Assembly: GCA_035344155.1 (NCBI GenBank) | Contig: DAORAL010000005.1 | Span: forward strand, 38,465 to 102,464 | Length of the DNA stretch: 64,000 nt | Direction: 5' to 3' | From: Phycisphaerae bacterium | Lineage (GTDB): Bacteria > Planctomycetota > Phycisphaerae > UBA1845 | Shown: piece after piece, positions 19,836 through 60,486 of the stretch | Layout: the number at the start of each line of letters is the position of its first letter | Position numbering within the stretch: position 1 is the stretch's first letter | Made by a program: the position numbers and the translations under genes | Notes under the pieces: model-generated | Told to the model about the DNA's origin: nothing | The model's input: the letters and a program-made list of their open reading frames with translations, nothing else | The model's database searches: none

Positions 19836-20257
19836 ATGAATCTTCGATCTGGCGACGTGACGATCACTGGTGAAATCAGCGTGAACTCCGACGCGCGTCT
19901 CAAAAAGGGCATCGCCAGTATCGACGACGCCCGCGCACTGATTATCCGACTCGATGGAAGAACCTATCACTGGAAGGATAGAACTGGTCGCGATGACAAT
20001 CGACACGTCGGTCTGATCGCGCAAGAAGTGGAATCCGTCCTGCCCGATCTGGTCAGCGAATCAGCCGCCGGCATCAAGTCGGTGAACTACCAGGGGTTGG
20101 TGCCCGTTCTGATCAATGCCGTGAAAGAGCAGGACCAGACCATTCAAATCAAAGTCAGGACGATCAAATCGACGCACTCTGTGCCGCGAACAACGAACTT
20201 GCGAACCGGCTGGCCCGCATCGAGTCCATGCCGAACGCAAACGGAGGTGCAAAGTGA
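19836..20257 (+). pseudogene. remnant of a tail-fiber-type intramolecular chaperone (peptidase S74-like) domain; N-terminally orphaned and frameshifted
   Basis: SDARLKKGI...HVGLIAQEVESVLPDLV...VNYQGLVPVLINAVKEQ matches the S74 autoprocessing/chaperone pattern. Near 20140-20155 the expected coiled-coil tail (QSQDDQIDALCAANNELANRLARIESM..GAK*) continues in a different frame. No body of a fibre protein lies upstream. Confidence 0.55.
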
Positions 20258-20676
20258 AGACCCGAACGAAGTCGACGGTTCTCGCAGTGGCTGGCTTGCT
20301 GGTTTCTGGAGCGTTCGTCTCTGCCGGCGAATTGGACCTGCGTTGGCGCACGGTTGACAGCGGTGGCGGATACAGCGCCGGTGGCGAATTCGAAATCGAA
20401 GGCACAGCCGGACAGCCCGATGCAGGTGCGATGACCGGCGGAAGCTTTGCGCTTGCAGGTGGGTTCTGGTCCGCCGCGACGCAAAATGTGGCGATCCCCG
20501 GAGATTGCGATGGCGACGGTGAAGTGGACCTGGATGACCATGCCGACGTCATTGCATGCCTTTCAGGTCCGAGCGCGGGCGTGAATGCCGGTTGCGCCTG
20601 TTTCGACTTTGATCTGGAAGGTGACACCGACCTGCGCGACTTCGCCAATTTGCAAATGGTGTTCACTGGGAACTGA
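20254..20676 (+). CDS. small secreted protein (140 aa) with a GGFW-type N-domain and dockerin-like C-terminal tail
   Basis: GTG start overlaps the TGA of the upstream remnant (GTGA). Signal peptide KTRTKSTVLAVAGLLVSGAFVSA. Tail: DCDGDGEVDLDDHADVIACLSGP...CACFDFDLEGDTDLRDFANLQMVF. Confidence 0.6.
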   Translation: MKTRTKSTVLAVAGLLVSGAFVSAGELDLRWRTVDSGGGYSAGGEFEIEGTAGQPDAGAMTGGSFALAGGFWSAATQNVAIPGDCDGDGEVDLDDHADVIACLSGPSAGVNAGCACFDFDLEGDTDLRDFANLQMVFTGN

Positions 20677-20928
20677 CCCGTCGCACGAAAGATGAGCGCT
20701 TGACGCCGTTGTCTCTTGATCGATCAAGCCGCTTGAGGGTCGCTATCTTGCAGTCTGTCAATGTTTGATTGCAACATGGGGGGGGCAGATCGCCGCGCGA
20801 GCATTTGGAATTGCCACCGAGAATCCCGAAGAATGACTACCGGGAGCATTAACACGCGATTTATCTTAGCCACGCTCGCGCAAAAGAGTGCAGCAGCTAT
20901 TCTTGAGCGATCGGGGACCGCACGACAG

Positions 20929-21885: not shown

Positions 21886-21908
21886 AGCAGTTCTCCTTGA
21901 GCTGGGGA

Positions 21909-22253: not shown

Positions 22254-22274
22254 GTGATGGGTCTCCTCTGCGTT

Positions 22275-23174
22275 TCATGCGGCGGCTGGATCTGCAATCT
22301 CGACGATGCGGTCGAGGCGAAACGTTCTCATTTCTGCCGATTTTGTACAAAAGGCTTTGACGTAAACGTGACGGCCCGCGCTGAAGCACGTGAGCGGTCG
22401 AATCATGCGAAACGAAGATCGACCATCGCCATTCTCGTAGCGAATCGAAATCAACTGTCCGCTGGTAACGGCATCGTACAGCGGTCCCGGCAACGTCGTT
22501 TGGGGATGCGTGGGCCACTGCGGCTGGTAACGGTGCATGGATTGCAGGTCCGCTACGATTAAGCCCGCTTCACCCAACTCGCCAACCAACATTTTGAAGA
22601 CCTCTCGCGTGGCGACAGCATCGTCCAGCGCCCGATGCTTCGCGGGATGCATGATGCCCAACTCCGATGTGATCGTATCGAGCTTGTAATCGGGCAACTC
22701 CCAAGTCGCGGCGGCCAGCTGGCACGTATCGAGACAACCGGCTGGCTCCACACGAAATCCGGCGATCGCGAATTCCATCGAGAGAAAGCCAATGTCAAAC
22801 CGGATGTTGTGACCCACAAGCCAAGCGTTACCAAACAGTCCGCCAACGGTTTGGGCAACCGCTTCAAAGCGGGGAGCATTGGCAACATCGGCATCTGTGA
22901 TCCCATGGACGCTTCGAGCATCCCCTGGAATGGGCCGATCGGGGTTGATGAATTGGGACGCCTGGCGGGGCCTTTGGCCCGGTTCGCAGACGACCAGTCC
23001 CATTTCGACGATCCGATCTCCCATCGCAGGGGAGAGTCCGGTTGTTTCAACATCAACAAATACCAACTTGGCGTCTTTCAGTTGCATCAGCGCGCTCACA
23101 TCACACGAATTCACATGGTTTCGCCATACAGCATAAGGCCGCGGTATGACAGGATGGGTCGGACCAGTCCACAT
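22275..23174 (-). CDS. DEDDh (DnaQ/epsilon-like) 3'-5' exonuclease fused to a C-terminal WYL-like domain
   Basis: Exo I FVDVETTGL, Exo II LVGHNIRFDIGFL, Exo III HRALDDAVAT. C-terminus ISIRYENGDGRSSFRMIRPLTCFSAGRHVYVKAFCTKSAEMRTFRLDRIVEI. Alternative start at ATG 23087 (MQLKDAKLVFVDVE). Confidence 0.75.
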   Translation of the reverse strand: MWTGPTHPVIPRPYAVWRNHVNSCDVSALMQLKDAKLVFVDVETTGLSPAMGDRIVEMGLVVCEPGQRPRQASQFINPDRPIPGDARSVHGITDADVANAPRFEAVAQTVGGLFGNAWLVGHNIRFDIGFLSMEFAIAGFRVEPAGCLDTCQLAAATWELPDYKLDTITSELGIMHPAKHRALDDAVATREVFKMLVGELGEAGLIVADLQSMHRYQPQWPTHPQTTLPGPLYDAVTSGQLISIRYENGDGRSSFRMIRPLTCFSAGRHVYVKAFCTKSAEMRTFRLDRIVEIADPAAA

Positions 23175-23235
23175 GATGCAAAAATCTTGCTAGAATCGGT
23201 TCAATCAATTGTTTTCAACTTACGGAAAACCCATC

Positions 23236-24261
23236 ATGGCTCGCGGCGAACTCATTCTTCGGCAATGGAACCTGCTAAAAATGCTGCAAACGCGCGGTGA
23301 GGGCATCGCCTTGCGCGACATTGCCGTCGAACTGGACGTCAGCGAACGTACCGTGCAGCGTGATTTCGAAGTGTTGCAGGAGTTGGGGTTCCCGATCGAT
23401 TTCGAGGAGGATGAATACGGCAAGCGTTTCTGGCGATTGCCGGCGGACTTTTTCCGCAGTGGTCCGCTCGTACTCGGGATCACCGAGTCTGTTTCGCTGC
23501 ACCTGGCTGAGAGAATGCTTGATCCACTTGGAGGCACGATTTTCGCCGAGGGATTGCAATCGGTCTTGGACAAGATTCGAAGCCTCGTTCCCGCCAAAGC
23601 GCTCGATTATTTTGCGGATCTGGACAGCACCGTGCACGTGCGACGCATGGGCAAAGTCGATTACTCCAGACATGCTGACACGATCCGGCTTGTGTTGGAC
23701 GCAGCCCGCAAAGAGTTGACTGTCGAGATCACCTATCGATCGCTTTGGCGCAAGGAAGCCTACGAAACACGATTCGATCCGTATGGATTGGTATTGTTTG
23801 ATGGCGATCTCTTCATTCTGGGGCGGTCGCATCGGGCGGATGGAATGCGTATCTTAAAGATCGCCCGCATCGCATCCGTCATCCCAACGGCAGAGGCATT
23901 CGAGAAACCGGCGGATTTTGTGTTGGCCGATCACTTCCGAGCCAGTTTTGGAATCGTGCACACCGGTGATGAACCGGTCGAGGTCGTGGCCAAGTTCACG
24001 GGTTCAACGGCGGTCCTGGTCAGTGAACGTGAGTGGCACGAGAGTCAGCAACTGGCTTGGTTGGATGCCGAAGCCACGCTCTTCGACGAGGTGCCCGACG
24101 AACCGGATGCGGTACTGGCGACGTTTCAGTTGGGCAACACGGTCGAGTTCAAACGCTGGATCAAGGGGCTTGGTGCAGAGGCGGAAGTGGTTCGTCCCGA
24201 TTGGCTCCGCCGAGAAGTCCGAGACGAGCTACTGAAAGCCGTCCGCCGTCACGAAGATTGA
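23236..24261 (+). CDS. HTH-WYL-WCX transcriptional regulator (YafY/PafBC/BrxR/CapW architecture)
   Basis: N-terminal HTH LRQWNLLKMLQTRGEGIALRDIAVELDVSERTVQRDFEVLQELGFPI. WYL core VEITYRSLWRKEAYETRFDPYGLVLFDGDLFILG. C-terminal extension domain. Divergent from the exonuclease gene. Confidence 0.8.
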   Translation: MARGELILRQWNLLKMLQTRGEGIALRDIAVELDVSERTVQRDFEVLQELGFPIDFEEDEYGKRFWRLPADFFRSGPLVLGITESVSLHLAERMLDPLGGTIFAEGLQSVLDKIRSLVPAKALDYFADLDSTVHVRRMGKVDYSRHADTIRLVLDAARKELTVEITYRSLWRKEAYETRFDPYGLVLFDGDLFILGRSHRADGMRILKIARIASVIPTAEAFEKPADFVLADHFRASFGIVHTGDEPVEVVAKFTGSTAVLVSEREWHESQQLAWLDAEATLFDEVPDEPDAVLATFQLGNTVEFKRWIKGLGAEAEVVRPDWLRREVRDELLKAVRRHED

Positions 24262-33800: not shown

Positions 33801-34697
33801 GGTACGACGACCGTCACATGCATGGCCACCGACGAATGTGGCAACACATCCACATGCGAGTTCGACATTGTGGTCAATCCGCTCAACGACTTGGCCGTCA
33901 CGGTCGAACTGCAGCCGAACATCGACACCGGACTTTCTCTGCCCGATACGCTGACGCGGTGCATCACATTCGAGTTGTGGGAATGCGGTGGTCCAAGCTC
34001 GGTGACGGTGAGTGAAGAGATTGAATTCACCATCACGAACAGTGGATTGCCCGGCGATCCCAATATGGCGGTTGGCTCGGCGTTGATCGAGGTTCCGTGT
34101 GGGGCATACTCCTGCATCACTGCCCGCGACCCGCTTCACACGCTTCGTCGCACCGATGAGTCCTTCGGCATCATCGGCAGTCAATATGTCGCTGACTTCA
34201 CCGGTGACGCGAGTGCCGGTGGCGACTGGTTGGTTGGAGGAAATCTCAACGACGACTTCTTTATCGATATTCTCGACTTTGGTGCCTATTCGTTCGAGTT
34301 TGGAAGCATCTACGGAAGTCCCTTCACGGGCGACACCGATTGTCTGACGCCGGCGCCCCATGCTGATATCAGCGGCGACGGTATCGTCGACAACTTCGAC
34401 TTCTCGTTCATCCAAGGAAACTTCCTCGATACGCATGAAGCGAATTGTTGCGGCGATCCAGGTCGACAAGCATCAGGTGACGACGGTCCAGTAACAGAGA
34501 TCACCATTCGCGAATTGCGCCGACGTGGTCTCGGTCACTACGCCATCGCCGACCTCAACAATGACGGCAGCCTCAACTATGAAGACATCGAGGCCTTCGC
34601 CAATGGCGCCCGACCCAAGCCGAAGAAAAGTTTGTCGCCGGACCACAAGGATGAACTGAGGCCGCAAAGCCAAGATCAATCTAGTCCCGAACGCTAA
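30849..34697 (+). CDS. giant secreted protein P1 (~1282 aa): cohesin-like module, HYR-like Ig repeats, two lamin-tail (LTD) domains, C-terminal Ca-loop/dockerin-like module
   Basis: GAGG lies 6 nt before ATG 30849; signal peptide MTFIRGGKSTITALTLCAAFLMTVQWSVVLG. Cohesin-like LEFKLASGSDCVKPGETVTVELHQ. HYR-like [29 protein letters not shown]...ITRTWTVSDCAGNETTCEQVITV. LTD LIISEIMDGTWPAGLPKFVELTNCSSAPVDLSSY and FIISEVIDGTLSGGIPKFVELTNCTPNTIDLSEY. Tail [22 protein letters not shown]...DLNNDGSLNYEDIEAFANG. Confidence 0.8.
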   Translation: MTFIRGGKSTITALTLCAAFLMTVQWSVVLGQSNSDSSVVGSEGGAGQPAGSANNGFLVGQHNADSTIVTAGAVNVLEFKLASGSDCVKPGETVTVELHQRNLSEPARGYQSFASYDSAMMTNLSQTLAPSPYMRSLLNSVVGDDIDAAAGIDEASQSPTDADALLATLTFTAGGTDGVTSVEFRTHSPPTRFSDVDGMELTPYLIASPPIVIDGTDPVITFCPPDVTIECDESTDPSNTGEATATDNLDPNPSVTYSDSAVAGICAQESVITRTWTVSDCAGNETTCEQVITVDDSSAPTGTQGTIDSCYATALDAEAAAIAATTDLADNCTATGSLLVSAVTAGTCDTTVTVTVADLCGNSTDFVYNTRIDSTPPAITCPAPPPQGLIISEIMDGTWPAGLPKFVELTNCSSAPVDLSSYSLGNINNGFSTLGFDALVLSGIVASGDSFVVSYEAGDSPGHGTFYDVYGFDPDDFSQGAFINGNDALALFSGAALSGDPVDGSGAPVVDLYGVVGVDGVGEVWDYTDGFSFRRSYVVGGNGGSFSPLEWQFGGAESLVGSNDLDELALMLANTTPGVHACSGGEVVVSTDPGTCEAEVTLTVSATDDCDGVLPVAYEADFGSGYVSISNPYSFPVGTWPVKASAIDTCNNVGSCEFSVTVLDDEPPTATQGTINDCYETFAEAESAAISATTDLADNCTTSGFTVTASTVGDCNATVTVSVADEAGNVTTFDYFTTVDGTPPDIACPAFSVGGFIISEVIDGTLSGGIPKFVELTNCTPNTIDLSEYRVALYSNGGLTESSSSLAYGELTGLLPSGASFVIANSNSGPGTDFLGIYGFEADFYDAVPNSNGDDLYQLLKDNGVGGDIVIDAHGVLGVDGTGEAWEYLDSYAYSLPGRTANGGAFNPANWFHAGVDALDGAGAAGISAVTTPGTHTCASSLITNADPGNCDALVTFATPTATDNCDPAPTVDCDHLSGEVFPVGTTTVTCMATDECGNTSTCEFDIVVNPLNDLAVTVELQPNIDTGLSLPDTLTRCITFELWECGGPSSVTVSEEIEFTITNSGLPGDPNMAVGSALIEVPCGAYSCITARDPLHTLRRTDESFGIIGSQYVADFTGDASAGGDWLVGGNLNDDFFIDILDFGAYSFEFGSIYGSPFTGDTDCLTPAPHADISGDGIVDNFDFSFIQGNFLDTHEANCCGDPGRQASGDDGPVTEITIRELRRRGLGHYAIADLNNDGSLNYEDIEAFANGARPKPKKSLSPDHKDELRPQSQDQSSPER

Positions 34698-34802
34698 GCA
34701 CGAATATCAGTCTTGAATCCTCAAGATCGAGAATTGGCTTGAGGATAGGAAAACAAAGTTGGCCAGATGCTTGATGCTTTGGCCGAAGAACGGAGGAAGC
34801 AA

Positions 34803-37800
34803 ATGCTTTTCAGAATAAACAACGTCGTATTTGCCAGTGTATTGGCGACTTTTCTTGTCGGCGATACTGCATTGGCAGGGAATAGACCGGCGGGCGTCAT
34901 TCCATTTGAAGGGCGTCCCGATGTCATCGACACGTCTCATGCCTCAATTGCATCAGGGCTGCGGGGTGTCGGGCCAGGAATCCAGGCGGGCGCCGACCAT
35001 ATCGCATCGCAACAGTGCCCCGTCGGGGGGTTCTGCTGGCCACACGGGAACGCGTGCTGTCCCACCGCACCGACCAACATCACCGGCCCCATTGGGCTGG
35101 CATTGTTGCACGCACACACATATACCTCGGACCCGGCGCACCTTGCGGCCGCAGCGATAGGTGGCGACTACGATCTCACGGTACAGTATCCGAATACGGA
35201 GTTTCGTTTGGGCGCGTTCACTGCGTATTTCCTTTGGCAGCTTTCGATCTCGACAGGCGACACCCAGTATCAAGATCATGCTGCAACGGCTTTTTATGAT
35301 GAACTTGCGGCCGGTACATACGGGCCGAGCGACTATGATACGCTCGGTTGGATTGGTGCGGTCGAAGCTTCTCGGACTGGCACGTGGGTCAATCTTCGCC
35401 CTTGGGAATTCCACAATCAGATTCCTGCTGCGGCTGCCTTGGGCAATCCCGGACAAAGCGCGGCTTTTGAAGCCGCCTGCCTGGCTGGACTGAACACGCT
35501 GGATAACACTGACCCGTCATCCGTCTACTCCGACCTAATTGGTGTAGCAGGAGGGGTTCGTGGCCTCGCCTTCGCTGGCACCACCAGCTTCGCTGCAATC
35601 TCTGCCCCAAACCACGCGGGAGTGAATGGTCTTTCTTCGTTGCAGGCACTGGCCGACTATTTGGCGAGTCAACAAAATGCAGATGGATCGTGGAACTGGC
35701 ATTCGGATCTTTCAACCCTCGGCGGTGCGACTGAAACCGACAAAGACACGCAAACGACGGCATATGCCGTTTTGGCGTTGCTGGAGGCAGACGCACTCGT
35801 GGCCTCGGATTACTCGGCGAACATCGAAAACGGTCGAAACTGGCTGCGCACGATGCAATTGCTTGACGGTGGGTTCATGAGCTACCCAGGTGGAGCAGAA
35901 AATACAGAAGTCGAAGCCGAGGCATTGAATGCACTTGCTCCAGATTCATGCACACAAGACAGACTGGAATTCCAATTGGCAAGTGGATCCGAATGCGTGC
36001 AGCCCACCGAAACGGTTGAAGTCGAACTCCACCAGCTCAATTTGTCCGGTCCTGTTCGTGGATACCAGGCATTCGCTCAGTTTGATAGTTCGGTAATGAC
36101 GCATGTTTCCAATGTGTTCACGAGCTCGCCATACTTTTTCATCCTGGAAGATTCTGTGAGCGGAGATGAACTGAATCTTGCAGGCGGAATCGACGACAGC
36201 TTTCAATCGACGACATCTGCAGACGCACTGCTTGCTACCATTTCATTTAGTGCTGGAGCGATTGAAGGGCCGACGACCGTCAGTTTTCGAGCGACTTCAA
36301 TCCCTACTCCCCCATCAAGATTTTCAGATCCGTTTGGTGCGGAAGTTACGCCGTGCCTCGTTCAGTCGCCCACGATCGTGGTTGATGGAACGGCTCCGGT
36401 TATCACTTGCCCAGGTGATTTGACGATCGAGTGCGACGAATCGACCGATCCATCGAACACGGGGTCGGCGACAGCGACCGACAATCTCGATCCCAGCCCA
36501 TTCGTCGACTACAGCGACGTCGTTACGCCAACTGGTTGCGACGAAGAATGGACGATCACGCGCACCTGGACCGCAATCGACTGTGCTGGAAATGAGTCGA
36601 TGTGTGTGCAGACAATTACCGTCGAGGATTCGACGCCACCGGCCGTATACTGCCCGGCAGACACGACGATTGAGTGTGATGAATCAACCGACCCATCCAA
36701 CACTGGGGTGCCAATTGGCTACTTCCAGGGCTTCGAAGATCCTGGCTTCGTCAGCAACACAGAAGCCGACTGGAACGATTACGACAGCGTGGTTTCGCGC
36801 GTCGCTTCCGGGACGGATGGAATCACCTCGAAATCGGGCGGATTCCATGCGGTCGTCGATTCAACTTTGCCGCCCGCGACCACCGGTGCGTTTACGAGAA
36901 TCGGCGGTTACGATTCGACATACGGCACCGGGTTCACCGTTTCGCTTGATCTCTACATGGATTTGTCCGATCCGGCTGTTGTAGCGGATACGTATGGATG
37001 GGATCTTTCGACTGCCGCAAACAATCAGTCAGGCACGCATCTCCAGGATTTCATCTTCCACACTGCATCCGATGCATCCGGAAACATTCTGGTTGGTGGG
37101 AGCAACAACTCCAATTTCACTCGCCGCAACGATATTGCGTCGCTCAACCATCACACAATATCGTCAACGGGCTGGTATACTTTTGAGTGGGTATTCCGTG
37201 ACTTTGGTGACGGAACGTTGGCAGTCGACCTTAATCTCCGCGATGCAGGTGGAAGTTTGCTGTGGACCGAAACGCGCCACGATGCGGGCAACATAATTGC
37301 CACAGTGGTTGGCGGCCATCGTTACATGTGGTTCACATTCCTGGAGGTCGATACGTTGGCAATCGACAACACCACCGTTCTAAATGGGGACCAGGCGACT
37401 GACAACTGTGATACGACTCCAGTTGTTACGCATAGCGACTCTACCGCTCTCGGTAGTTGTCCCCAGAACTCGGTAATCACTCGTACTTGGACAGCGACCG
37501 ATTGTGCCGGCAACATGAGCAGTTGCGATCAGACCATTAATCTGGTCGATACGACCGCACCCGTCATTGGCGCTTGTCCGGCTGACATTACCGTCAACGC
37601 AGATGCGGGAGACTGCGATGCGGTCGTGACATTCACGCCGCCAACGGCGACCGACAACTGCGATGGCGCACCGACGGTGGTTTGTGACTGGCCCAGCGGG
37701 TCGACGTTCCCATCGGGAACCACGTTGGTCACATGCACGGCCACGGATGGTTGCAGCAACTCGTCGGCTTGCGACTTCAACGTAACGGTTAATTCGTCCA

Positions 37801-38781: not shown

Positions 38782-39396
38782 ATGGTGAGCAATAAACCTC
38801 AGTTAACGATTGTTGTCATTGCAGGCTTGTTTGGTTTGTCGGTCGCAAGTGCGAGCGGTGGTCCGATCAGCCTGGAGTGGCGGCCGGCGTCTCAGTCTGT
38901 TGTTGTTGGCGATACGATCAACATCGGACTCTACGCGGTCTCTGACGATAGCGTGGACGATGAAATCTCGGTGATGGATGTCATTCTTGAGTGGGACCCA
39001 TCGTTCATGAGCCTTCAAGGGCTCGACAACAATGGCCCATACAACTGGCTTTCGTCATCGTTTCCAGCCACAGCGATCGGTGGGTTGAACCCGGATTATT
39101 CCGATGGCGACGCGACTTATACTGCTCGGAGCCAGTTCATACCCCCGTCGGCTATTGCGACGCCCGGTGGATTGCTGGTGACGACGGTTCAGTTTCTCGC
39201 GCTTGCCGAAACGCCAGGGACGATGCTCACTATTCCCGAGTCAAAGGGCTTGGCTGAGACTTCAGTGATTGGCGACATCCCAGGATTCGACGTCCATAGT
39301 TCGCTGGGAAGCGCCATGGTGACGATTACTCCCGAACCGGCATCGTTCATGTTGTTGCTTGCAGGTGCAACAATGGTGATTCGTCGCAGGGCTTAG
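38782..39396 (+). CDS. P3: secreted cohesin-like single-domain protein with PEP-CTERM sorting signal (204 aa)
   Basis: AGGAG lies 7 nt upstream; signal peptide LTIVVIAGLFGLSVASA. Cohesin-like ISLEWRPASQSVVVGDTINIGLYAVS...VMDVILEWDPSFMSLQG. C-terminus TPEPASFMLLLAGATMVIRRRA. Confidence 0.8.
   Translation: MVSNKPQLTIVVIAGLFGLSVASASGGPISLEWRPASQSVVVGDTINIGLYAVSDDSVDDEISVMDVILEWDPSFMSLQGLDNNGPYNWLSSSFPATAIGGLNPDYSDGDATYTARSQFIPPSAIATPGGLLVTTVQFLALAETPGTMLTIPESKGLAETSVIGDIPGFDVHSSLGSAMVTITPEPASFMLLLAGATMVIRRRA
39328..39393 (+). other. PEP-CTERM motif (PEP + TM helix + Arg cluster) at the C-terminus of P3
   Basis: T-PEP-ASFMLLLAGATMVI-RRRA is the last 22 codons of the ORF. Confidence 0.75.
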
Positions 39397-39567: not shown

Positions 39568-40308
39568 ATGAATGGGCACAAGTTTGTAATTGGTGTTGTT
39601 TTGGCATCGACGTCGTTGTTGGGCGGCAAGTGCTTCGCGGGCATTATCGATCTTGAATTTCGGCCTTCTCTTCAAGTCGTGGCCCCCGGCGAAACTGTAA
39701 GTGTCGGTCTGTATGCCGTCTCTGTAGACGAAACCGATGATGTAATCTCGGTCATGGACGTTGTCCTGACTTGGGATCCCGCAATCCTCAGTCTCCAGGG
39801 CGTGGTCAACAATGGCCCCTATAACTGGTTGTCTTCGGGCTTTCCTTTCAATGCGATCGGCGGGCTGAACGTTGATCTAACGGATGGGGATGCCACATAC
39901 ACCGCTCGCAGCAGGTTTGCACCTCAGCCGTCGGCAATAGCGACGTCCAATGGGCTTCTCGTAACCACAATTCAATTTGTCGCAGTTGCAGAGTCTTCGA
40001 CAACGACTTTAAGCATCGTCGAATCAATCGGGATCGCGACAACAAAAGTTGTCGGGGACATTCCGGGGTTTGATGTTCATGGACAATTGAATGGCGCGAC
40101 GTTCGTTGTGCAATCCTGTACCGATTCCGACCCGGATGACGACGGTGACGTCGATCTTGTGGATTTTGCCGCATTTCAACAATGCTTCGGTGTGAGTTCG
40201 ATAGATCAATTTGCCATCGATTGTTTGTGCTCGTTCGATTCGGATAACGACGGCGACATCGACCTTACCGATTTTGATTCGTTTGCCGCGGGGATCACTG
40301 GCCCTTGA
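39568..40308 (+). CDS. P4: secreted cohesin-like protein, paralog of P3, ending in a dockerin-like tail instead of PEP-CTERM (~246 aa)
   Basis: Signal peptide MNGHKFVIGVVLASTSLLGGKCFAG. Cohesin-like IDLEFRPSLQVVAPGETVSVGLYAVS...VMDVVLTWDPAILSLQG. Tail DDDGDVDLVDFAAFQQCFG...CLCSFDSDNDGDIDLTDFDSFAAGI. Confidence 0.8.
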   Translation: MNGHKFVIGVVLASTSLLGGKCFAGIIDLEFRPSLQVVAPGETVSVGLYAVSVDETDDVISVMDVVLTWDPAILSLQGVVNNGPYNWLSSGFPFNAIGGLNVDLTDGDATYTARSRFAPQPSAIATSNGLLVTTIQFVAVAESSTTTLSIVESIGIATTKVVGDIPGFDVHGQLNGATFVVQSCTDSDPDDDGDVDLVDFAAFQQCFGVSSIDQFAIDCLCSFDSDNDGDIDLTDFDSFAAGITGP

Positions 40309-40403: not shown

Positions 40404-42821
40404 ATGCGTCGTTCAAACACGATTGCACGGAGACCAATGCTCGTGAAAAACCACGCACACCATTTAGGGCTGCTGGCGTGTTTTGCCTTCGGTGCCTTTG
40501 TTTTTGCGAACGTCGCCCGTGCGAACGTCCGGTACTCGTTTGTCTTTCGCAGCGATCAGGTCGTTCCGCCAACGGCAAGCATCTCAGCCGGTCAAGGGGC
40601 GGCTACACTGAACACTGCTGAAACGGAGTTGGTTTTCGCTGTGCTGCATGGTGTTTCTGGCGCGACGTCTGCGACGGTTCACTCGGGCGAGCTCGGAACC
40701 AATGGTCCCGTCGAGTTTACGCTGACCATGGTCAACGCAACAACTTTCGCTGGCACGTGGGCCATCGATTCGAGTGGAATCGCCGACCTCCAAGCCGGGC
40801 GACTGTACGTGCAGATTGAATCCGACCTTTACCCGGACGGGGAAGTCCGCGGGCAGATCGATCTGAACCCCAATCCAGTGCCGGGCGATGTGATCATCAC
40901 GGAGATCATGTACGACCCGCTTTCGCCCGAAGGGAATTACCCTGATCCACCATTCGCAGCCAACTCTGAGTGGATCGAATTGTTCAATACCACCTTCACC
41001 GACATCGAAATTGGCGGATGGTTTTTCCAGGATGAGGACGTCGACGAATCGGCTCCCTGTACATTGCTGCGCAGCGGTACATTTCCACCATTCGTATTGC
41101 GATCATTCCAAACGGTTGTTGTTATTCCGGATGGCGCAGAACTCAATGGCGAGTCGCCAAGCGTCGCCGACTTCAAGACATCCTGGAACCTCGGCGCCAA
41201 TATCAATGTGATTCAACTCAACGCGGATGGAACAACGGGTGGTGCGATCGTCGGGCACAACCTTTCGAACAATCCGTTCAGCGACAACTTCGACAACGAT
41301 TTGCCGCTGATTCCAGACCCACCGCTGTGGTCACCGTGTGGCACATTCAATCGAAGCGACAACGAAATCCTCACGCTCAACGATGGCGACCAGATTATCG
41401 ACGTCGTTAATTTCGGCGACGAGTTTGCAATCGAGGTCGGCGCGATGGATTGGCCCAATCCCGTTCCCGGTGCCAGCATCCAACTTGTGCCAGCCGACTA
41501 TCCTGCGCTTCCCCCGATCGATGTCAGCAGTTTCAGCGCATTGGGCAATGACGATCCACACAACTGGATCGGGCATGAATCAGGCGACCTAGCCGGTGGG
41601 ACTCAACAGTCGGTTCAGGCGGGTGTTTACAAAGGTGATGACATCGGGTCTCCCGGGTTCTTGTACGGTGCATCAACGGGGAATCAGCCGCCAGTTGCGG
41701 TGGGCGAACAAGTGGTCATGACTCCCGGGCAGTCCAGACTGGTTACGATGGACGGAACAGACAATACCCGGCCCTTCTTCGGTCTGCTGTTGTTCTTGAT
41801 CAAGTCACTCCCGCAGAACGGTCATCTGATCGACATTGCAGGCGGTAACCATGTGATCACGGCTGGTGATATCAGCGGGAATGGTTACCTGATGCCGATG
41901 ATTCCGTTTGACCTGGTTCGCTATACAAACAATGGAACTTGCGGGTTGGATTCGTTTTCATTCGCGACATTCGATGGAGTCGTCGAGTCGGCTCCGGTGG
42001 ATGTCGAATTCTTCGTTCAGTGCGGTGAGGTTGTCATCACTGAAATCATGTACAACCCCGATTCGACCGAAAACAGTCCGTCAGAAGCTGAATGGATCGA
42101 GCTGTACAACAACACAGATTATCCAATCGACTTGGGCGGTTGGTATTTTGCCGACGACGTTACGCGTAGCGGCGACTTTCCTTCGTTTATCCTTGGCGCC
42201 AAATCGGCGGTGGTGGCGATACCGGCTGTCGCGGACCCGAATGAGTACCTAAGCGGCTGGGGTTCGCAATTTGTGCACATCACCACCAATGGCGACACTG
42301 GTAACGGTGGCATAACCGGATCGAATCTTTCAAATGGTGGTGAGTCACTTCGCCTGGTCAAGCCCGGTGGAAGCACGCCGCTTGTCTCGGATGCAGTCTT
42401 TTACAAGAGCGGCTTTGTTGATCCCATGTGGCCGCAGATGGGGATTGACGGTCCAAGCATCTACGTTCGACCGTCGGTTTCGTACAACGCGCTCGCGAAC
42501 GATAACCCGTTGATATGGGAGAGGTCGATTAACGGAATCGACGGTGCGGCATTGGTTGAGTTGACGGCGGTCTATGATGGCGACGATATCGGGTCACCTG
42601 GATTCCTTCAGGGATTGATTCAGGGACCATGCCTGTCGTTCGGATTCAGTCATGACGGCAACCGGGATTTGAGCGTTGATGAAAAGGACTACGCGCACTA
42701 CGACCTCTGCTCGTTTGGCCCCGGTACGGACATCCCGCTGAACTGCGACTGCTTTGATACGGACGGCGACGGGGACCTTGACCTCGTTGACTTCGCCGGT
42801 TTTCAGGCGGCGTTTGATTGA
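40404..42821 (+). CDS. P5: secreted CHRD + 2x lamin-tail-domain protein with dockerin-like tail (~805 aa)
   Basis: Signal peptide HHLGLLACFAFGAFVFANVARA. CHRD: FRSDQVVPPTASISAGQGAATL...ATVHSGELGTNGPV...GRLYVQIESDLYPDGEVRGQI. LTD: VIITEIMYDPLSPEG...SEWIELFNTTFTDIEIGGWFF and VVITEIMYNPDSTENSPSEAEWIELYNNTDYPIDLGGWYF. Tail CDCFDTDGDGDLDLVDFAGFQAAFD. The track start (TTG 40305) was replaced by ATG 40404; ATG 40437 is also possible. Confidence 0.75.
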   Translation: MRRSNTIARRPMLVKNHAHHLGLLACFAFGAFVFANVARANVRYSFVFRSDQVVPPTASISAGQGAATLNTAETELVFAVLHGVSGATSATVHSGELGTNGPVEFTLTMVNATTFAGTWAIDSSGIADLQAGRLYVQIESDLYPDGEVRGQIDLNPNPVPGDVIITEIMYDPLSPEGNYPDPPFAANSEWIELFNTTFTDIEIGGWFFQDEDVDESAPCTLLRSGTFPPFVLRSFQTVVVIPDGAELNGESPSVADFKTSWNLGANINVIQLNADGTTGGAIVGHNLSNNPFSDNFDNDLPLIPDPPLWSPCGTFNRSDNEILTLNDGDQIIDVVNFGDEFAIEVGAMDWPNPVPGASIQLVPADYPALPPIDVSSFSALGNDDPHNWIGHESGDLAGGTQQSVQAGVYKGDDIGSPGFLYGASTGNQPPVAVGEQVVMTPGQSRLVTMDGTDNTRPFFGLLLFLIKSLPQNGHLIDIAGGNHVITAGDISGNGYLMPMIPFDLVRYTNNGTCGLDSFSFATFDGVVESAPVDVEFFVQCGEVVITEIMYNPDSTENSPSEAEWIELYNNTDYPIDLGGWYFADDVTRSGDFPSFILGAKSAVVAIPAVADPNEYLSGWGSQFVHITTNGDTGNGGITGSNLSNGGESLRLVKPGGSTPLVSDAVFYKSGFVDPMWPQMGIDGPSIYVRPSVSYNALANDNPLIWERSINGIDGAALVELTAVYDGDDIGSPGFLQGLIQGPCLSFGFSHDGNRDLSVDEKDYAHYDLCSFGPGTDIPLNCDCFDTDGDGDLDLVDFAGFQAAFD

Positions 42822-46600: not shown

Positions 46601-49550
46601 ACCCGACTGCAATTTGAACGGGGTAGCCGACGCCTGCGACATCGCAGGCATGAACAGCGATGACTGTAATACAAATCATGTTCCCGATGAGTGCGAACCG
46701 GATTGCAACGGCAACGGGGTTGCGGACGGTTGTGATATCGCAGCGGGTTCGGCCAGCGATTGCGACAACAACGGTACGCTGGACGAGTGTGACATTGCGG
46801 AGGGGACTGCTATTGATTGCAACGGAAACGGGACGCCGGATCAATGCGAATTGAACATGGTGTCTTCGGATCAGAACGTCTTGAGCACGACTGCTGATGC
46901 CGCAACCTCAGTTTATGCGGCAGACATTGATGGTGACGGAGATGCCGATGTTCTTGCGGCTGCGTACGGCGATGACGAGATCACCTGGTATGAAAACATC
47001 GACGGTCTGGGCACGCTCGGAGCTCAACAAATTCTCGCTGACGATGCTGATCATGTAAGGGCAGTTTTGACCGCCGATATGGATGGGGACGGCGACGCCG
47101 ATGTTTTGTCCGCGTCGAGGCCACTCGCCTGGTACGAAAATCTGGACGGATTGGGGACCTTTGGCCCAGAGCGTCCCATTGCAACGATGACATCTTATAC
47201 GACGGCCAATTCAATCTTTGCAGTCGACATGGACGGTGATGGAGATACCGACGTGTTGGCCGGGATGGATGTCGACTGTAGGTTGGTATGGTACGAAAAC
47301 AGTGACGGACTCGGTAACTTTGGACTTCCGCATTACATTGACGCGGACCTCTGTGCTCTCTCTGTCTTTGCGGCGGATCTTGATGGCGATGGGGATGCCG
47401 ATGTGCTGGCTGGACCATCGGGCTACAACGTGGTTTCATGGTATGAGAACTCGGACGGGGCCGGAAGTTTTGGACCTCCTCAGCCGCTTCACTCATCCGG
47501 CTATGGTGCAAGGTCAGTTTTTGCCGTCGATGTGGACGGGGACGACGACTTCGATGTGCTGTCGATATTAATTGGAAACGACAGCATCACCTGGCACGAA
47601 AACCTCGACGGGCAAGCAAACTTCGGAGCCGAACAGGTCATCACGAACGCCGCCGGTTCTGCGACTTCGCTCTTTGCCATCGATCTGGATTCAGACGGTG
47701 ATGCTGATGTGCTCTCCGCATCCGGCTTACATGACGAAATCGTCTGGTATCAAAACAATGATGGAATGGGCGAATTCGGCGCCGCGCAATTGGTCGCATC
47801 GAATGTCCTTCTGCCAAGCTCGGTGTTCGCTGCAGACCTGGACGGGGACGGCGATCTTGATGCGCTATCAGCATCGCAAAATGACGACAAGATTGCCTGG
47901 TACAAGAACAGCACGATCAACGACTGCAACAACAACAAGGTTCCGGACGACTGCGACATTGCGAGCGGGACAAGCACGGACTTCAACCAGAACAGCGTGC
48001 CAGACGAGTGTGAAGACTGCAACATGAATCACATCCTCGACTACCTTGAATTGGTGAACAACGACTGCAATTCCAATGGCATTCCCGACGAGTGTGACGA
48101 GGCCGTCAGCGAGAGCAAAGACTGCAATAACAACGGAATCTTCGATGGATGCGAAATTGCAGGCGGAAGTGCGGATGATTGCAATGCAAACCTCGTGCCA
48201 GATGAATGCGAATTGCAGGGGGTTTTCTCAGCCGATGAGGTGATCACGGCTGCCGCGAACGGTGCTTTCGCTGTTATCGCTACAGACATCGACGGCGACG
48301 GCGATGCTGACGTCCTTTCGGCGTCGGCCAACAATCCTAACATCGCGTGGTACAAAAACACGGATGGGTTAGGCATATTCGATAGTCAGCACCCAATCAG
48401 TGACTCTGGCACCGGTGTCAGCTCGATCGATTCGGCCGATCTGGATGGCGATGGCGATGTGGATGTGTTGTTGGCCACGGGGTCCATCTTCAGCAGTTTC
48501 GTTTCGTGGTATGAGAATACCGACGGGCTCGGCGAATTTGGGCCGCGAAATGTAATCTCCAGTGGAGTTCATAGAGAACATTCGGCGTCTGCTGCGGACT
48601 TGGACGGAGACGGAGACGCCGATGTCTTATCCGGGTCTTGGAATGACCTTGCGTGGCGCGAAAACACGGATGGTCTCGGGACTTTCGGTCCAAGGACTGT
48701 GATCTCGGATCTTGTTACAAATGTCGTCTCGGTGGTCTCTGCTGATCTGGATGGGGACGGGGACCTCGACGTCATTTCTGTGTCCTCAAACGACGGAAAG
48801 GTCGCGTGGTATCAAAACATCGATGGACTGGGGAGTTTCGGACCGCAGCAGCTCATCGCCGGACCCGTTACTGTTCGATCGATCCGTACTGCAGATCTGG
48901 ACGGTGATGGTGATGCCGATGTGTTGTACGCAAGGAGCTCCAGTGTGGCTTGGCACGAGAATACGGATGGGTTGGGAACCTTCGGACCGTCGCAACTAGT
49001 CGGCGAGGGCGCTCAGACGGCGCGGTCTGTCTTTGCGATTGACCTGGATGGTGATGGCGACATCGATGTACTTTCTGCCTCGTCTGGCGATGACAAGATC
49101 GCATGGTATGAAAACACGGACGGGCTGGCCAACTTTGGTCCGCAGCAGATCATCTCGACGTCAGCCGATGGCGCGCGATCGGTTTTTGCAGCCGACCTGG
49201 ATGGCGATGGAGATGCCGACGTGCTATCCGCGTCCTACGACGATGACACCATCGCCTGGTATGCGAATATCGGCTACGACTGCAACCGCAACCGCGTTCC
49301 GGATGATTGCGAAATCGATACCGATGGCGACGGTCTGATCGACGGCTGCGATCGCTGCGCAGGTGGAATGGCGAGCGGAGACCGGGACGGAAACGGCATC
49401 ATTGATCTTGCCGATTTCACAGGATTGGAGCCGTGCCTGGTCGGACCTGAGAGCGATCTCAATGAAGGTTGTGAATGTTTCGATTTCGATCTTGACGGTG
49501 ACAATGACTTGAATGACTTCGCGGTGTTTCAGGCGATCTTTGTGCCATAG
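43668..49550 (+). CDS. P6: 1960-aa secreted protein with four 7-repeat FG-GAP/VCBS beta-propeller units separated by Cys-rich DCNxNGxPDECE repeat arrays; dockerin-like tail
   Basis: Signal peptide SVLIAVAVVAAALVFGAATGRACA. Seven FGxSVAxxGxxxxxGA...YVF repeats (~43850-44965). Three sets of seven ADLDGDGDxDVLSAS..DDKIAWYENxDGLGxFG repeats (~45340-46390, ~46860-47905, ~48220-49265). Cys-rich arrays at ~44985-45330, ~46400-46853 and ~47919-48215. Tail GDRDGNGIIDLADFTGLEPCLVGP...CECFDFDLDGDNDLNDFAVFQAIF. Confidence 0.85.
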   Translation: MHHPTDRRFRPDSVLIAVAVVAAALVFGAATGRACAADCNSNGIEDAVELSPGEQIAKLVANDASLDANFGNSVAMDGDTAIIGAWRDDENGSFSGAAYVFRDNGGSWQQVAKLTADDAVENNFFGVSVAISGNTVVVGAYGSADPLSLVGSAYVFREQNNSWQQIAKLTADDGADHDYFGIGSTGGIAITGDMIVIGAVGDQDNGLWSGSAYVFREIQGVWQQTTKLTSNDALANDFFGATVALSGGTVIIGAYGSGGTNNGASYVFREINGDWQQIGKLSDANPAAEGRFGWSVAISEDTAIVGSPESNENANGSGVTYVFREIEGAWQRIAKLVADDGEAFDWFGASVAINGNIAIIGAPGRDNGDLDFGAAYVFREDGGVWRQIATFTAADGTSDDDFGNNVAMAGNIAVFGVPSHGDGLLNRSGAAYVFKIPRTDCNANGVLDECDIASATSPDCNSNGVPDECEADCNSNGIPDECDFAELTSTDCNLNGLPDECELIGNDCNSNDYPDECDIAGLTSSDCNRNNVPDECEPPTADCNVNGVPDVCEYQLTFSGQKIISIDADGANAVYTADLDGDGDLDVLSASNADDKIAWYENIDGAGTFGPQRIISSTAAGANSVFAADLDGDGDADVISSSSSDRKIAWYENIDGLGAFGLPTVFEIGLDTPISVIAADLDGDLDLDILFATRGFANVAWFENTDGLGAFGPIEIIDDFSGLVSSAIPADLDGDGDLDVLATLDFDDTVLWYENTDGLGTFDYWQVITTVANGALSAFAADLDGDGDLDVLSASKLDSKIAFYENTDGLGSFGPQQIISTDMDRPASVSARDLDGDGDLDVLSASSGDDKIAWYENTGGLGQFGAQQVITVAADGAKSVITADLDGDGDFDVLSVSPDDDKIAWYEVETVNDCNNNDVHDECDIAGATSLDCNNNAVPDECELVLNDCNMNGVPDDCDVEQAASLDCDGNGVPDECQPDCNLNGVADACDIAGMNSDDCNTNHVPDECEPDCNGNGVADGCDIAAGSASDCDNNGTLDECDIAEGTAIDCNGNGTPDQCELNMVSSDQNVLSTTADAATSVYAADIDGDGDADVLAAAYGDDEITWYENIDGLGTLGAQQILADDADHVRAVLTADMDGDGDADVLSASRPLAWYENLDGLGTFGPERPIATMTSYTTANSIFAVDMDGDGDTDVLAGMDVDCRLVWYENSDGLGNFGLPHYIDADLCALSVFAADLDGDGDADVLAGPSGYNVVSWYENSDGAGSFGPPQPLHSSGYGARSVFAVDVDGDDDFDVLSILIGNDSITWHENLDGQANFGAEQVITNAAGSATSLFAIDLDSDGDADVLSASGLHDEIVWYQNNDGMGEFGAAQLVASNVLLPSSVFAADLDGDGDLDALSASQNDDKIAWYKNSTINDCNNNKVPDDCDIASGTSTDFNQNSVPDECEDCNMNHILDYLELVNNDCNSNGIPDECDEAVSESKDCNNNGIFDGCEIAGGSADDCNANLVPDECELQGVFSADEVITAAANGAFAVIATDIDGDGDADVLSASANNPNIAWYKNTDGLGIFDSQHPISDSGTGVSSIDSADLDGDGDVDVLLATGSIFSSFVSWYENTDGLGEFGPRNVISSGVHREHSASAADLDGDGDADVLSGSWNDLAWRENTDGLGTFGPRTVISDLVTNVVSVVSADLDGDGDLDVISVSSNDGKVAWYQNIDGLGSFGPQQLIAGPVTVRSIRTADLDGDGDADVLYARSSSVAWHENTDGLGTFGPSQLVGEGAQTARSVFAIDLDGDGDIDVLSASSGDDKIAWYENTDGLANFGPQQIISTSADGARSVFAADLDGDGDADVLSASYDDDTIAWYANIGYDCNRNRVPDDCEIDTDGDGLIDGCDRCAGGMASGDRDGNGIIDLADFTGLEPCLVGPESDLNEGCECFDFDLDGDNDLNDFAVFQAIFVP

Positions 49551-57827: not shown

Positions 57828-57952
57828 CCGCGAGCGCATCCCCAACTCTTTTCAGTGTGCTGATCATTGCGGCCATCATCGGCGCTGCGATCGCCGCCCT
57901 CGTGCTGATCGGATTGATCATCAGCGATTGGCGTGGCCAGCGCCTGTGGTAA
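57824..57952 (+). CDS. 42-aa single-pass membrane peptide translationally coupled to the symporter (below the ORF-track cutoff)
   Basis: ATG 57824 overlaps the symporter TGA (ATGA). My translation: MTASASPTLFSVLIIAAIIGAAIAALVLIGLIISDWRGQRLW*. Confidence 0.45.
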   Translation: MTASASPTLFSVLIIAAIIGAAIAALVLIGLIISDWRGQRLW

Positions 57953-58149
57953 TTGAGCGAACCGCGATTTCTTCAATTATAGACCTTGTCACGTCTCATT
58001 TTGGCGTCGGTGACGTTGGCGGACCGCCAATCGGGCTTTGGTACTGGCGTGAGCCACGAAGTTTGACAATTGTAACGTTTCAGAAGTGGGCGCGGGCGTT
58101 CTCGATTTGCTAGAATGTTGCCCTGACCATTTTGCACGGAGGGCAAAAC

Positions 58150-60486
58150 ATGCCTGGACGGTTTTTTTCCGCACCGACGACTTTGATTGTCGCGACTTTG
58201 GTTATCGGCGTATTCGTTACACCCGGTTTGGCCCAGGTTGTTACCGTTGACAACGTTGACTCGGGGTTTTCTGTTCTTGCGGGCACATGGGAAACCGGCA
58301 CGTTTCCGACGCCGCATGGTTCCAACTATCGATGGGCGCTGACGGTGGATGAGCCGTTTGCCGAAGTCGAATGGCGCCCCAATCTTCCGACATCCGGTTT
58401 ATATCAAATCGAAGTCTGGTACGTGCAGGGAACGAACCGCGCATCCGATGCGGTCTACAATGTGCACCATGCCGGCGGTTCGACGCCCGTCTCCGTCAAC
58501 CAGCAGGCCAACGGCAGCCAATGGAATATCATCGGCACGTTCAGCTTCAACGCGGGCAGTGGCGGCTACATCACGATGAACAACGACGCGAATCCGTTGG
58601 TCGTCATTGCCGACGCGGTGCGGTTCACGTCGCTTTCCGGTGCGACAGCCGACCTGACACTTGCGGTGTCGCCTCCTGGCTCGGGCACAACGACACCGAC
58701 AGCTGGAATTGTGAATTCGTATTTCGTCGGAGAGACGGTCAGCATCTCAGCCGCACCAACAAGTGGAAACGTGTTCGACCATTGGGAGACGTCGGCAGGT
58801 TCGCTTCCGGCATCGCCGACCTCTGCATCAACGACAGTGACAGTTGACCAAAACAAGACAGTGACAGCCGTCTTCGTGCCGGGCGACACGACGCCTTCGT
58901 TTCGCGGATTCTGGATTGATGCATTCGGGTTCGGCTTCAAGAATGCGGCGCAGATCGATGAGATGGTGGCGATGGCCGTTGCCGGTGGATACAACGCAAT
59001 CGTCCCCGAGGTGCTCGCATATCAAGACAACATCGGCAGCGGACACGGCGCGTATTGGAACTCGACGATCATTCCCAAAGCCACCGACATCAGCAGTTCG
59101 TTCGATCCGCTGGCCTACATGGTCGACCGGGCCCAGGCGAACGGACTCGAAGTCCACTGTTGGCTGGTGTCATTTCGCGTGAGCGAATCCTGGCCACCCA
59201 GCGGCAACAGCATCATGTCCGCCCATCCCGAATGGTTGATGGTTCCGCAGGCGGGCATCGACGGCGGGCCTGCAACGGTGGACGGCAAATTCACGCTCGA
59301 TCCGGGGTCAGCCGGTGCGCAGGAATACCTGATGAGCATCGTTCGCGAACTGGTTACCAACTACGACATCGACGGGATTCACTGGGACTACATTCGCTAC
59401 ACGACCACGAACGCAGGCTATCCGGCTGACATGAACTACGACAAGTCGACCCTCGCCCGCTTCCACGATATCACCGGTCGCAGCGATATTCCGTCGACAG
59501 GCGACAGTCAATGGAATGAATTCCGCCGACGCACGATCACCGAGTTTGCCCGTCGCGCGATGACCGAAGTGGCGACGTTGGACAATCCCAATCAGCCGCT
59601 GCGTCACACGGCTGCTCTGATCACGTGGGGTGACGCACCCGCAAATTTCTCGTCGAGCAGCGCATACGGCATTTTTCAGAATTGGCGTCACTGGATGGAG
59701 ATGGGCTACCTCGATGCGGGTATTCCAATGACGTATTACAGCGAGTCGGCACACGCCTCGTGGTATCGAAACTGGGTCGATGCGTCGGTCGGATGGCGCT
59801 ACGATCGCCACATTTACACGGGACCGGCCGTCTATCTCAATTCATTCGCCGAGAGCATTGCGCAGATGCAGTACGCCCAGAATGCAGGCGCCAACGGATT
59901 GAACACGTATTCGTACCGCAGCACCAATGACACGGGCGCGAACTGGTACGACTGGTATCCGTACGTGAAAGCCAACCTGTTTGCGGGAGCGGTTGACGTT
60001 CCGTCGATGCCGTGGCGCGATCCTGATTCCTCGACCGAGGGCAACGTGTGGGGAAGAGTGACAGATGGTGGCACTGGTGAGCCGATCGATGACGCGACCA
60101 TCCTGCTCGATGGATTTGACACCGGCATCCGTACCGACGGAAACGGTTACTATTTGCTGACGCATGTAGCAGCCGGGGTGGGTGGTTCGCCGAAGGACGT
60201 TACCGCAAGATTCACCGGTTATTCGGATGTGTCGCGGCCGGCGGTTCTGGTTGAACGCGCGGGTTACACCGAGGCCAACTTCGGCATGGGTTCGTGGTTG
60301 CCCGGCGACTACGACGCGGATGGTGACGTAGATGCGGATGACTACGCGGAGTTGAACGGGTGCCTGACCGGACCGATCCCGGGTCAAATGATCGCCGGGT
60401 GCGACGTCATGGACCTTGACCTTGACGACGACGTGGACCTCGAAGACTTCGCCGAATTCGAAGCCGCGTTCACCACAGGTTCCTGA
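58150..60486 (+). CDS. secreted GHL10 (YngK/DUF187-type glycoside-hydrolase-like) protein with N-terminal golvesin-C-like domain, carboxypeptidase-regulatory-like domain and dockerin-like tail (~778 aa)
   Basis: GGAGG lies 7 nt before ATG 58150; signal peptide PTTLIVATLVIGVFVTPGLAQ. N-domain VDNVDSGFSVLAGTWETG...YQIEVWYVQGTNRASDAVYNVHHAGG...ADAVRF. GHL10 core FRGFWIDAFGFGF...YNAIVPEV...DGIHWDYIRY. CarbopepD-like VWGRVTDGGTGEPIDDATILLDG. Tail GDYDADGDVDADDYAELNGCLTGP...CDVMDLDLDDDVDLEDFAEFEAAF. Confidence 0.75.
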   Translation: MPGRFFSAPTTLIVATLVIGVFVTPGLAQVVTVDNVDSGFSVLAGTWETGTFPTPHGSNYRWALTVDEPFAEVEWRPNLPTSGLYQIEVWYVQGTNRASDAVYNVHHAGGSTPVSVNQQANGSQWNIIGTFSFNAGSGGYITMNNDANPLVVIADAVRFTSLSGATADLTLAVSPPGSGTTTPTAGIVNSYFVGETVSISAAPTSGNVFDHWETSAGSLPASPTSASTTVTVDQNKTVTAVFVPGDTTPSFRGFWIDAFGFGFKNAAQIDEMVAMAVAGGYNAIVPEVLAYQDNIGSGHGAYWNSTIIPKATDISSSFDPLAYMVDRAQANGLEVHCWLVSFRVSESWPPSGNSIMSAHPEWLMVPQAGIDGGPATVDGKFTLDPGSAGAQEYLMSIVRELVTNYDIDGIHWDYIRYTTTNAGYPADMNYDKSTLARFHDITGRSDIPSTGDSQWNEFRRRTITEFARRAMTEVATLDNPNQPLRHTAALITWGDAPANFSSSSAYGIFQNWRHWMEMGYLDAGIPMTYYSESAHASWYRNWVDASVGWRYDRHIYTGPAVYLNSFAESIAQMQYAQNAGANGLNTYSYRSTNDTGANWYDWYPYVKANLFAGAVDVPSMPWRDPDSSTEGNVWGRVTDGGTGEPIDDATILLDGFDTGIRTDGNGYYLLTHVAAGVGGSPKDVTARFTGYSDVSRPAVLVERAGYTEANFGMGSWLPGDYDADGDVDADDYAELNGCLTGPIPGQMIAGCDVMDLDLDDDVDLEDFAEFEAAFTTGS

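Follow-up and report, generated by a model that had tools for sequence, protein, structure and literature searches.

Cysteine-bearing dockerin-type tails and candidate cohesin partners encoded in a Phycisphaerae genome

In a 64,000-nucleotide stretch of the Phycisphaerae bacterium assembly GCA_035344155.1 (contig DAORAL010000005.1, positions 38,465 to 102,464; hereafter the window), five secreted proteins end in the same short tail of two aspartate-rich loops separated by a cysteine-containing linker. Profile matches and a predicted fold indicate that this tail is a diverged module of the Dockerin_1 family. It is a proteome-wide module, and the window stands out only through one island of genes, P1–P6, whose products include three candidate cohesin-type modules. 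What we have is a known domain in a lineage-specific and putatively disulfide-stapled form, belonging to a system already hypothesised. The reading that we favour, and consider reasonably probable, is that the cysteine-stapled tails dock their cargo in the presence of Ca2+ onto the surface-anchored cohesins of the island.

Identity, cysteines and distribution of the tail

An earlier note on this DNA had quoted five C-terminal tails, and a check of sequence and open reading frames (ORFs) placed each of them exactly, all on the forward strand and each stopping 1–4 residues short of its stop codon. The loop DxDxDGxVDxxD occurs twice in every tail. The note had likened this duplication to the F-hand logic of dockerins, and the likeness is borne out by two Ca2+-type loop-plus-helix segments, by family matches and by the predicted fold. 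Dockerin_1 was the leading Pfam family, matched by 67 of 100 copies at E ≤ 0.01, with EF-hand families far lower (EF-hand_7 was also matched by 13 of the 100). When the Dockerin_1 model was searched against the genome it matched 67 places at the same threshold, about 44 of which pass its gathering score. The tail aligns to model positions 1–52 residue for residue, with no insertion. A profile of 100 copies, compared with the sequences of the Protein Data Bank (PDB), retrieved the solved dockerins 8x39, 5nrm, 6kge, 2y3n and 2vn5, together with EF-hand proteins that include calmodulin and troponin C; no NCBIfam model matches the tail.

Structure prediction, which the earlier note had recommended, points the same way. 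An AlphaFold2 (AF2) model of the P6 tail, made for 63 residues from a paralog alignment, has a mean predicted local distance difference test (pLDDT) score of 94.3 and two helices, at residues 17–26 and 51–60. In a Foldseek search of the PDB, ranks 1–13 were all dockerins or dockerin-bearing chains of cohesin–dockerin complexes, with template modelling (TM) scores of 0.5–0.66; the best match was 2y3n_B (TM score 0.66, root-mean-square deviation 1.7 Å, probability 0.94), and calmodulin-type folds scored below 0.31. A generic Asp-rich segment of low complexity was considered as well and rejected because of the fixed length, the invariant Cys positions and the confident fold.

The closest known relative is the type I dockerin of cellulosomes (Dockerin_1, PF00404; 1ohz_B, 2vn5_B and 2y3n_B). 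Both modules are about 60 residues long and contain two Ca2+ loops of 12 residues, with a helix after each, and the tail matches the Pfam model in length and register; both are mostly C-terminal on secreted multidomain enzymes and both have internal two-fold sequence symmetry. In the tail the motif D-[FY]-A-x-F lies on the helices after both loops, so that a dual binding mode as in type I dockerins is possible. The tail departs from it in several respects. Cysteines, either the conserved pair or four, lie within the linker and next to it; in place of cellulases the cargo consists mainly of peptidases, propellers and adhesin-like proteins; the putative partner cohesins escape the Pfam Cohesin model; and the host, instead of being a Firmicute, is probably a planctomycete and has no FtsZ. 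FtsZ (TIGR00065) was not found in this assembly, which is 96% complete, and was present in 13 of 14 control genomes; its absence fits a planctomycete-type, FtsZ-less division and, taken with the domain repertoire, suggests Planctomycetota and probably Phycisphaerae. The DUF1559 model (PF07596) matched neither this genome nor the controls, and so does not bear on the phylum. Canonical EF-hand pairs (calmodulin-like, EF-hand_7) share the DxDxDG-type loops, but the tail has no entering helix before either loop and just two long helices are predicted.

The cysteines set the tail apart. In the 100-copy alignment C26, at the end of helix 1, never varies, and C38, which precedes loop 2 by four residues, is conserved to at least 90%. 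Both cysteines occur in 136 of 149 copies, and the solved dockerins have no Cys at these two positions in the alignments shown. We infer that one disulfide closes the 11-residue linker in all copies. The earlier note had described C...CxC as an inserted linker, a description that does not hold: since Dockerin_1 positions 1–52 align without a gap, the linker is no longer than usual and the Cys motif arises by substitution. The CxC form is a subtype of 38 copies. In 34 of the 38 there is a further Cys, either within loop 1 or ahead of it, versus 52 of 98 copies without CxC (Fisher p 5e-5), and this co-occurrence suggests that the four-Cys subtype has a second disulfide linking the CxC to the N-terminal flank. 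The four-Cys pattern fits the tails of P4, P5, P6 and the small protein at position 20254 and does not fit that of the protein with a GHL10 domain. No report of a bacterial dockerin with a disulfide in Planctomycetota turned up in literature searches.

The genome (5.49 Mb in 96 contigs) was searched in all stop-to-stop frames of its six-frame translation. The hidden Markov model (HMM) that the earlier note had proposed to build from the five tails, which gives those tails themselves E-values of 1e-22 to 1e-28, well outside chance, found 132 domains in 127 ORFs, and a second HMM, made from 100 copies, found 149 domains in 144 ORFs. Thus the five carriers of the original count ("at least five") are real, but the number was a large underestimate. 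Nor is the tail always terminal, as had been claimed: 130 of the 149 copies end within 15 residues of the stop, and 19 are internal, N-terminal or tandem (18 of 132 with the five-tail HMM). The mean density is about one tail per 37 kb of genome, and the 40-kb spread of tails in the window, the P1–P6 island apart, mostly reflects this genome-wide density. Carriers are large, with a median of 790 amino acids (aa). A signal-peptide-like N-terminus was scored on 117 of 127 tail ORFs versus 1,403 of 2,871 control ORFs, by a crude and permissive test of which only the enrichment counts.

Pfam annotation of 20 randomly sampled carriers revealed M1, M12B reprolysin-like (L020) and M14 (L021) peptidases, an endonuclease I, a second GHL10 protein, a galactose-oxidase-like Kelch protein, five FG-GAP proteins (two with an ASPIC/UnbV domain) and SBBP, MAM and PATR proteins; seven of the 20 had no Pfam domain.

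Every one of 30 relatives sampled from the same family or order has the tail, in 2 to at least 150 copies each. Beyond the order it is rare, with matches in 1 of 52 genomes belonging to the class's other orders (E ≤ 1e-12) and in at least 4 of 100 genomes across the phylum (E ≤ 1e-8). A worldwide search with the profile matched 27,408 protein clusters (50% identity), and 9,464 of these reach E ≤ 1e-10; among the best 150 matches, tandem C-terminal doublets or triplets with the Cys pair are common.

Candidate cohesin modules of the P1–P6 island

The earlier note had also spoken of cohesin-like modules in the island, and these proved real. The P4 core was modelled by AF2 as an all-β domain (pLDDT 87.7), and a Foldseek search of the PDB with this model gave 74 matches at E ≤ 0.001, of which the best 50 are, without exception, cohesin modules or scaffoldins that contain cohesins. 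The strongest are 6kgf_C (E 1.8e-8, probability 1.00) and 6kgc_A (TM score on the target 0.81), within a range of 0.75–0.81 on the target. The non-cellulosomal cohesins 2xdh and 2jh2 are among the matches; 2xdh is a cohesin of Archaeoglobus fulgidus, and 2jh2/2ozn are non-cellulosomal modules of Clostridium perfringens. P3 is 56% identical to P4 over their shared 160-residue core, and from the P4 model its core would likewise be a cohesin fold. Neither P3 nor P4 matches the Pfam Cohesin HMM, and a P3/P4 profile found these two as the sole members of their family in the genome. Most of the 21 metagenome homologs of the core end in a PEP-CTERM signal or in a Cys-dockerin tail.

The third candidate lies in P2, at about aa 412–520. 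It aligns to a region of the syntenic ortholog (L008) that passes the Pfam Cohesin model (26.4 bits, cut-off 24.1), and a two-sequence profile of the module retrieved from the PDB only 2vn5_A and 1g1k_A, both cohesins of Clostridium cellulolyticum (E 0.004). Upstream of this module, at about 35630–35880 (aa 290–370), P2 has weak matches to TED_complement, squalene-hopene cyclase and prenyltransferase (16 bits each), and the surface protein may possess a thioester or terpenoid-cyclase-like domain there.

Gene order in the island is kept on a 370-kb metagenome contig of the Joint Genome Institute (JGI), which encodes, in this order, an LTD/HYR protein, a cohesin–HYR–dockerin protein, a PEP-CTERM cohesin, a cohesin–dockerin protein and a CHRD/LTD protein. 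The genome under study has one exosortase, EpsH (186.7 bits), and about 55 ORFs with a PEP-CTERM signal.

Docking, its alternatives and the planctosome

These observations suggest how the system might work. Each of the two EF-hand-like calcium loops, with its following D-[FY]-A-x-F helix, would form half of a docking module. The conserved Cys pair would close the linker between helix 1 and loop 2, with a second disulfide probably added in the four-Cys subtype, and such closure would make the module robust outside the cell. Carriers would be exported through their Sec signal peptides, after which the tail would fold with Ca2+ and dock non-covalently onto the cohesin-fold modules encoded in the island. 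P3, a predicted single cohesin, would be fixed to the cell envelope by its PEP-CTERM signal and the exosortase of the genome, and P4 (cohesin plus dockerin) and P2 (cohesin, HYR and dockerin) would serve as adaptors through which the assembly grows. The cell surface would thereby hold about 144 peptidases, glycosidases, nucleases, propeller and adhesin-like proteins. The disulfides, the Ca2+ binding, the binding of tail to cohesin with its specificity, and the surface anchoring are all predictions of this scheme. The earlier note's idea of a common docking tag gains support from the dockerin identity, the fold and the island modules, with binding itself predicted.

Several points weigh against such docking. 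Only three cohesin-type modules face about 144 dockerins, and a genome-wide search with the Pfam Cohesin family (PF00963) gave no match at E ≤ 0.01. For four of the five window tails a Dockerin_1 match is either unreported or under the gathering score of 22.9 bits, the reported scores being only 20.1 bits for the 20254 protein and 17.6 for P6. The Foldseek E-values of the tail model are weak (0.24–0.4), as expected for only 63 residues. Many genomes reportedly have dockerins without cohesins, and dockerins may therefore have other ligands. The main rival accordingly is that most of the 144 dockerins bind something besides the three island cohesins. The tail would then be a dockerin-fold Ca2+ module whose ligand might be a cell-envelope glycan, peptidoglycan or an S-layer-like component, or it might do no more than help large exported proteins to fold and stay stable in a Ca2+-dependent way. 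The numerical imbalance and the missing Pfam cohesins speak for this rival, as do the 27,408 clusters worldwide with their many tandem doublets and triplets, a pattern more suggestive of avid binding to a repetitive surface than of docking in single pairs. Set against it are the cohesin-fold modules themselves, which lie in a conserved island beside dockerin-tailed proteins, one with a dockerin of its own and another with an envelope anchor, in the classical logic of adaptor and anchor. On balance we regard this rival as unlikely, though it deserves the most serious attention.

That the tail is instead a C-terminal sorting signal, read by a dedicated export or attachment machinery and then removed or covalently processed, is suggested by the 130 copies close to the stop, by the secreted appearance of nearly all carriers and by a strong expansion limited to one order (all sampled genomes of that order, against the single genome from elsewhere in the class). 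Classical dockerins, however, are mostly C-terminal too. The 19 internal, N-terminal or tandem copies and the confident two-helix dockerin fold, which is neither a β-sandwich C-terminal domain (CTD) nor a transmembrane segment with a basic tail, make a sorting signal very improbable, and the genome already holds a separate PEP-CTERM and exosortase system. The sorting domains named for comparison in the earlier note (PEP-CTERM, the CTD of the type IX secretion system, LPXTG) thus fit poorly. The tails have no transmembrane segment and no PEP motif, and so do not qualify as PEP-CTERM signals of the TIGR02595 type; NCBIfam sorting-domain models match none of the tail proteins; and Por_Secre_tail and sortase signals were not found on the eight window proteins by Pfam and NCBIfam, the tail being α-helical.

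A further possibility places the receptors elsewhere: small, diverse PEP-CTERM proteins adjoining dockerin-tailed genes would be the true envelope-anchored receptors, possibly very diverged cohesin-like sandwiches, in gene-by-gene cognate pairs instead of around one hub. Of the 55 PEP-CTERM ORFs, 20 have a tail ORF no more than 500 bp away (in 19 cases on the same strand), where 5.6 are expected at random and 13 was the maximum in 1,000 trials. In three cases paralogous PEP-CTERM proteins have tail neighbours that share at most the tail, and P3 itself combines a predicted cohesin with a PEP-CTERM signal. The adjoining proteins, on the other hand, are mostly singletons without Pfam matches, the most cohesin-looking of them reached a probability of only 1.3% against the P3/P4 profile, and adjacency may merely reflect clustering of surface-protein genes; we give the idea the slimmest chance of those considered. 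A mixed arrangement seems somewhat less improbable, if still doubtful: two tiers of exosortase-anchored receptors, with P3, P4 and P2 as a hub and dozens of fast-diverging PEP-CTERM proteins as private receptors, for which the stapled dockerin would be the universal plug. If true, it would amount to a surface-display code without a cellulosome-like scaffold. Examples of such adjacent pairs are C2:171927-172610 beside C2:165413-171958 and, in the window, P3 beside P4. C2_171927 was tried as a cohesin and rejected, with nothing significant from hhalign or a search of PDB sequences, and Pfam gave no matches on ten PEP-CTERM neighbours of tail genes.

Docking onto the island cohesins has a precedent in the 'planctosome', proposed by bioinformatics alone for Nemodlikiaceae (Phycisphaerae) (Andrei et al. 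2019, ISME J, PMC6461901). As set out there, its parts are an LTD-tethered cohesin protein, a dockerin–HYR–cohesin adaptor and dockerin-bearing M12B and M14 peptidases (PMC6461901). All of these have counterparts in the present genome, namely LTD-bearing proteins (P1 and P5), a cohesin-like, HYR and dockerin protein (P2) and the dockerin-tailed M12B and M14 peptidases, and neither system is linked to cellulose degradation. The locus is clearly a system of this kind, both being proposals from sequence analysis. They differ in tether and cargo: the published tether is LTD, whereas the island here has a PEP-CTERM-anchored cohesin (P3) and a minimal cohesin–dockerin adaptor (P4), and the published cargo is narrower than the roughly 144 proteins here, which extend far beyond peptidases. 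Neither a Cys-stapled dockerin nor a PEP-CTERM-anchored cohesin is mentioned in the available portion of PMC6461901, and the later literature that we found merely cites the term.

The planctosome model would gain from this island a concrete candidate anchor. Candidate partners can now be named, as three Pfam-missed cohesin-type modules in one conserved island, one with an exosortase anchor and two with dockerins of their own, and the value lies in a concrete, testable pairing of predicted cohesins with a defined cargo set of about 144 dockerin-tailed proteins. If binding is as predicted, the disulfide-stapled dockerin may also serve as a sturdier docking tag in protein engineering. Cohesin and dockerin folds serve outside cellulosomes as well, where dockerins are often far more numerous than cohesins. 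To our knowledge, this excess over detectable cohesins has been recognised for more than a decade in planctomycetes and other non-cellulolytic microbes, and we know of no partner that has been shown. The present system resembles such non-cellulosomal modules in its use and its dockerin excess, and in the matches of 2xdh and 2jh2 to the P4 fold; it differs in how far the module has expanded (to about 3% of the likely proteome), in the putatively disulfide-stapled subtype and in the PEP-CTERM cohesin.

Carriers and neighbouring genes in the window

The carriers had been called otherwise unrelated, and Pfam agrees: it assigns different domains to P5, P6 and the GHL10 protein and none beyond the tail to P4 and the 20254 protein. 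P6 is a 1,960-aa propeller giant with 21 FG-GAP_3 stretches, and the GHL10 protein combines Golvesin_C, GHL10 and CarboxypepD_reg domains, an architecture that recurs, together with the tail, in a paralog (L029) elsewhere in the genome. The diverged three-loop variant attributed to P1 and P2 is also real, though non-terminal in both. In P2 it spans aa 1116–1174, with a third loop at aa 1215–1233, and scores 23.4 bits against Dockerin_1 at aa 1119–1174, just over the 22.9 cut-off. Coordinates are collected below.

Table 1. Dockerin-type and cohesin-type features of the window and the ORFs that carry them (positions within the window)
Feature	Position	Strand	Remarks
20254 protein	ORF 20254..20676	+	140 aa, small secreted; signal peptide; Gly-rich 'GGSFALAGGFW' segment
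20254 protein, Cys-dockerin tail	20503-20664	+	Dockerin_1 20.1 bits (cut-off 22.9); tail HMM E 8e-28
P1	30780-34697	+	Pfam LTD x2 and HYR
P1, three-loop dockerin-like region	34239..34604	+	Non-terminal; aa 1154-1215, third loop aa 1256-1275
P2, candidate cohesin-like module	36000..36326	+	About aa 412-520; ORF 34767-38555
P2, dockerin-like loop pair and third loop	38112..38465	+	Downstream of HYR_4C/HYR
P3, predicted cohesin-fold core	38860..39321	+	ORF 38782-39396; paralog of P4 core
P3, PEP-CTERM sorting signal	39331..39393	+	Sequence PEPASFMLLLAGATMVIRRRA
P4, predicted cohesin-fold module	39643..40110	+	AF2 pLDDT 87.7; all-beta, aa 32-186
P4, Cys-dockerin tail	40135..40296	+	Four-Cys form; ORF 39553-40308
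P5, Cys-dockerin tail	42657..42815	+	Four-Cys form; ORF 40305-42821, CHRD and LTD
P6, Cys-dockerin tail	49380..49541	+	ORF 43668-49550; query of the AF2 model
GHL10 protein, Cys-dockerin tail	60307..60471	+	Two-Cys form; ORF 58132-60486

In the 140-aa protein the tail is preceded by the Gly-rich segment GGGYSAGGEFEIEGTAGQPDAGAMTGGSFALAGGFWS (20254-20502, forward strand), which neither Pfam nor NCBIfam matches, and a near-identical copy of its tail occurs on the contig-end ORF C93:3-1127. Just upstream of the 20254 ORF and overlapping its start, a forward-strand ORF at 19836-20357 reads 'SDARLKKGI...GLIAQEVESVLPDLV'; its translation presumably resembles the intramolecular chaperone (Peptidase_S74-like) domain of tail-spike and fibre proteins. 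The longest P5 ORF begins at a TTG that overlaps the P4 stop codon (40305-40308), and a later Met precedes a likely signal peptide, so that P4 and P5 may be translationally coupled or the true P5 start may lie downstream.

The genes between the carriers are unrelated, encoding an ADP-ribosylglycohydrolase, WYL regulators, two-component systems, an asparagine synthase and a symporter. At 22275-24261 a divergent pair comprises an RNase_T exonuclease–WYL fusion on the reverse strand and an HTH–WYL–WCX regulator on the forward strand, and at 50096-52768, on the reverse strand, an 889-aa protein joins a transglutaminase-like core to a domain of the beta-lactamase (serine hydrolase) family.

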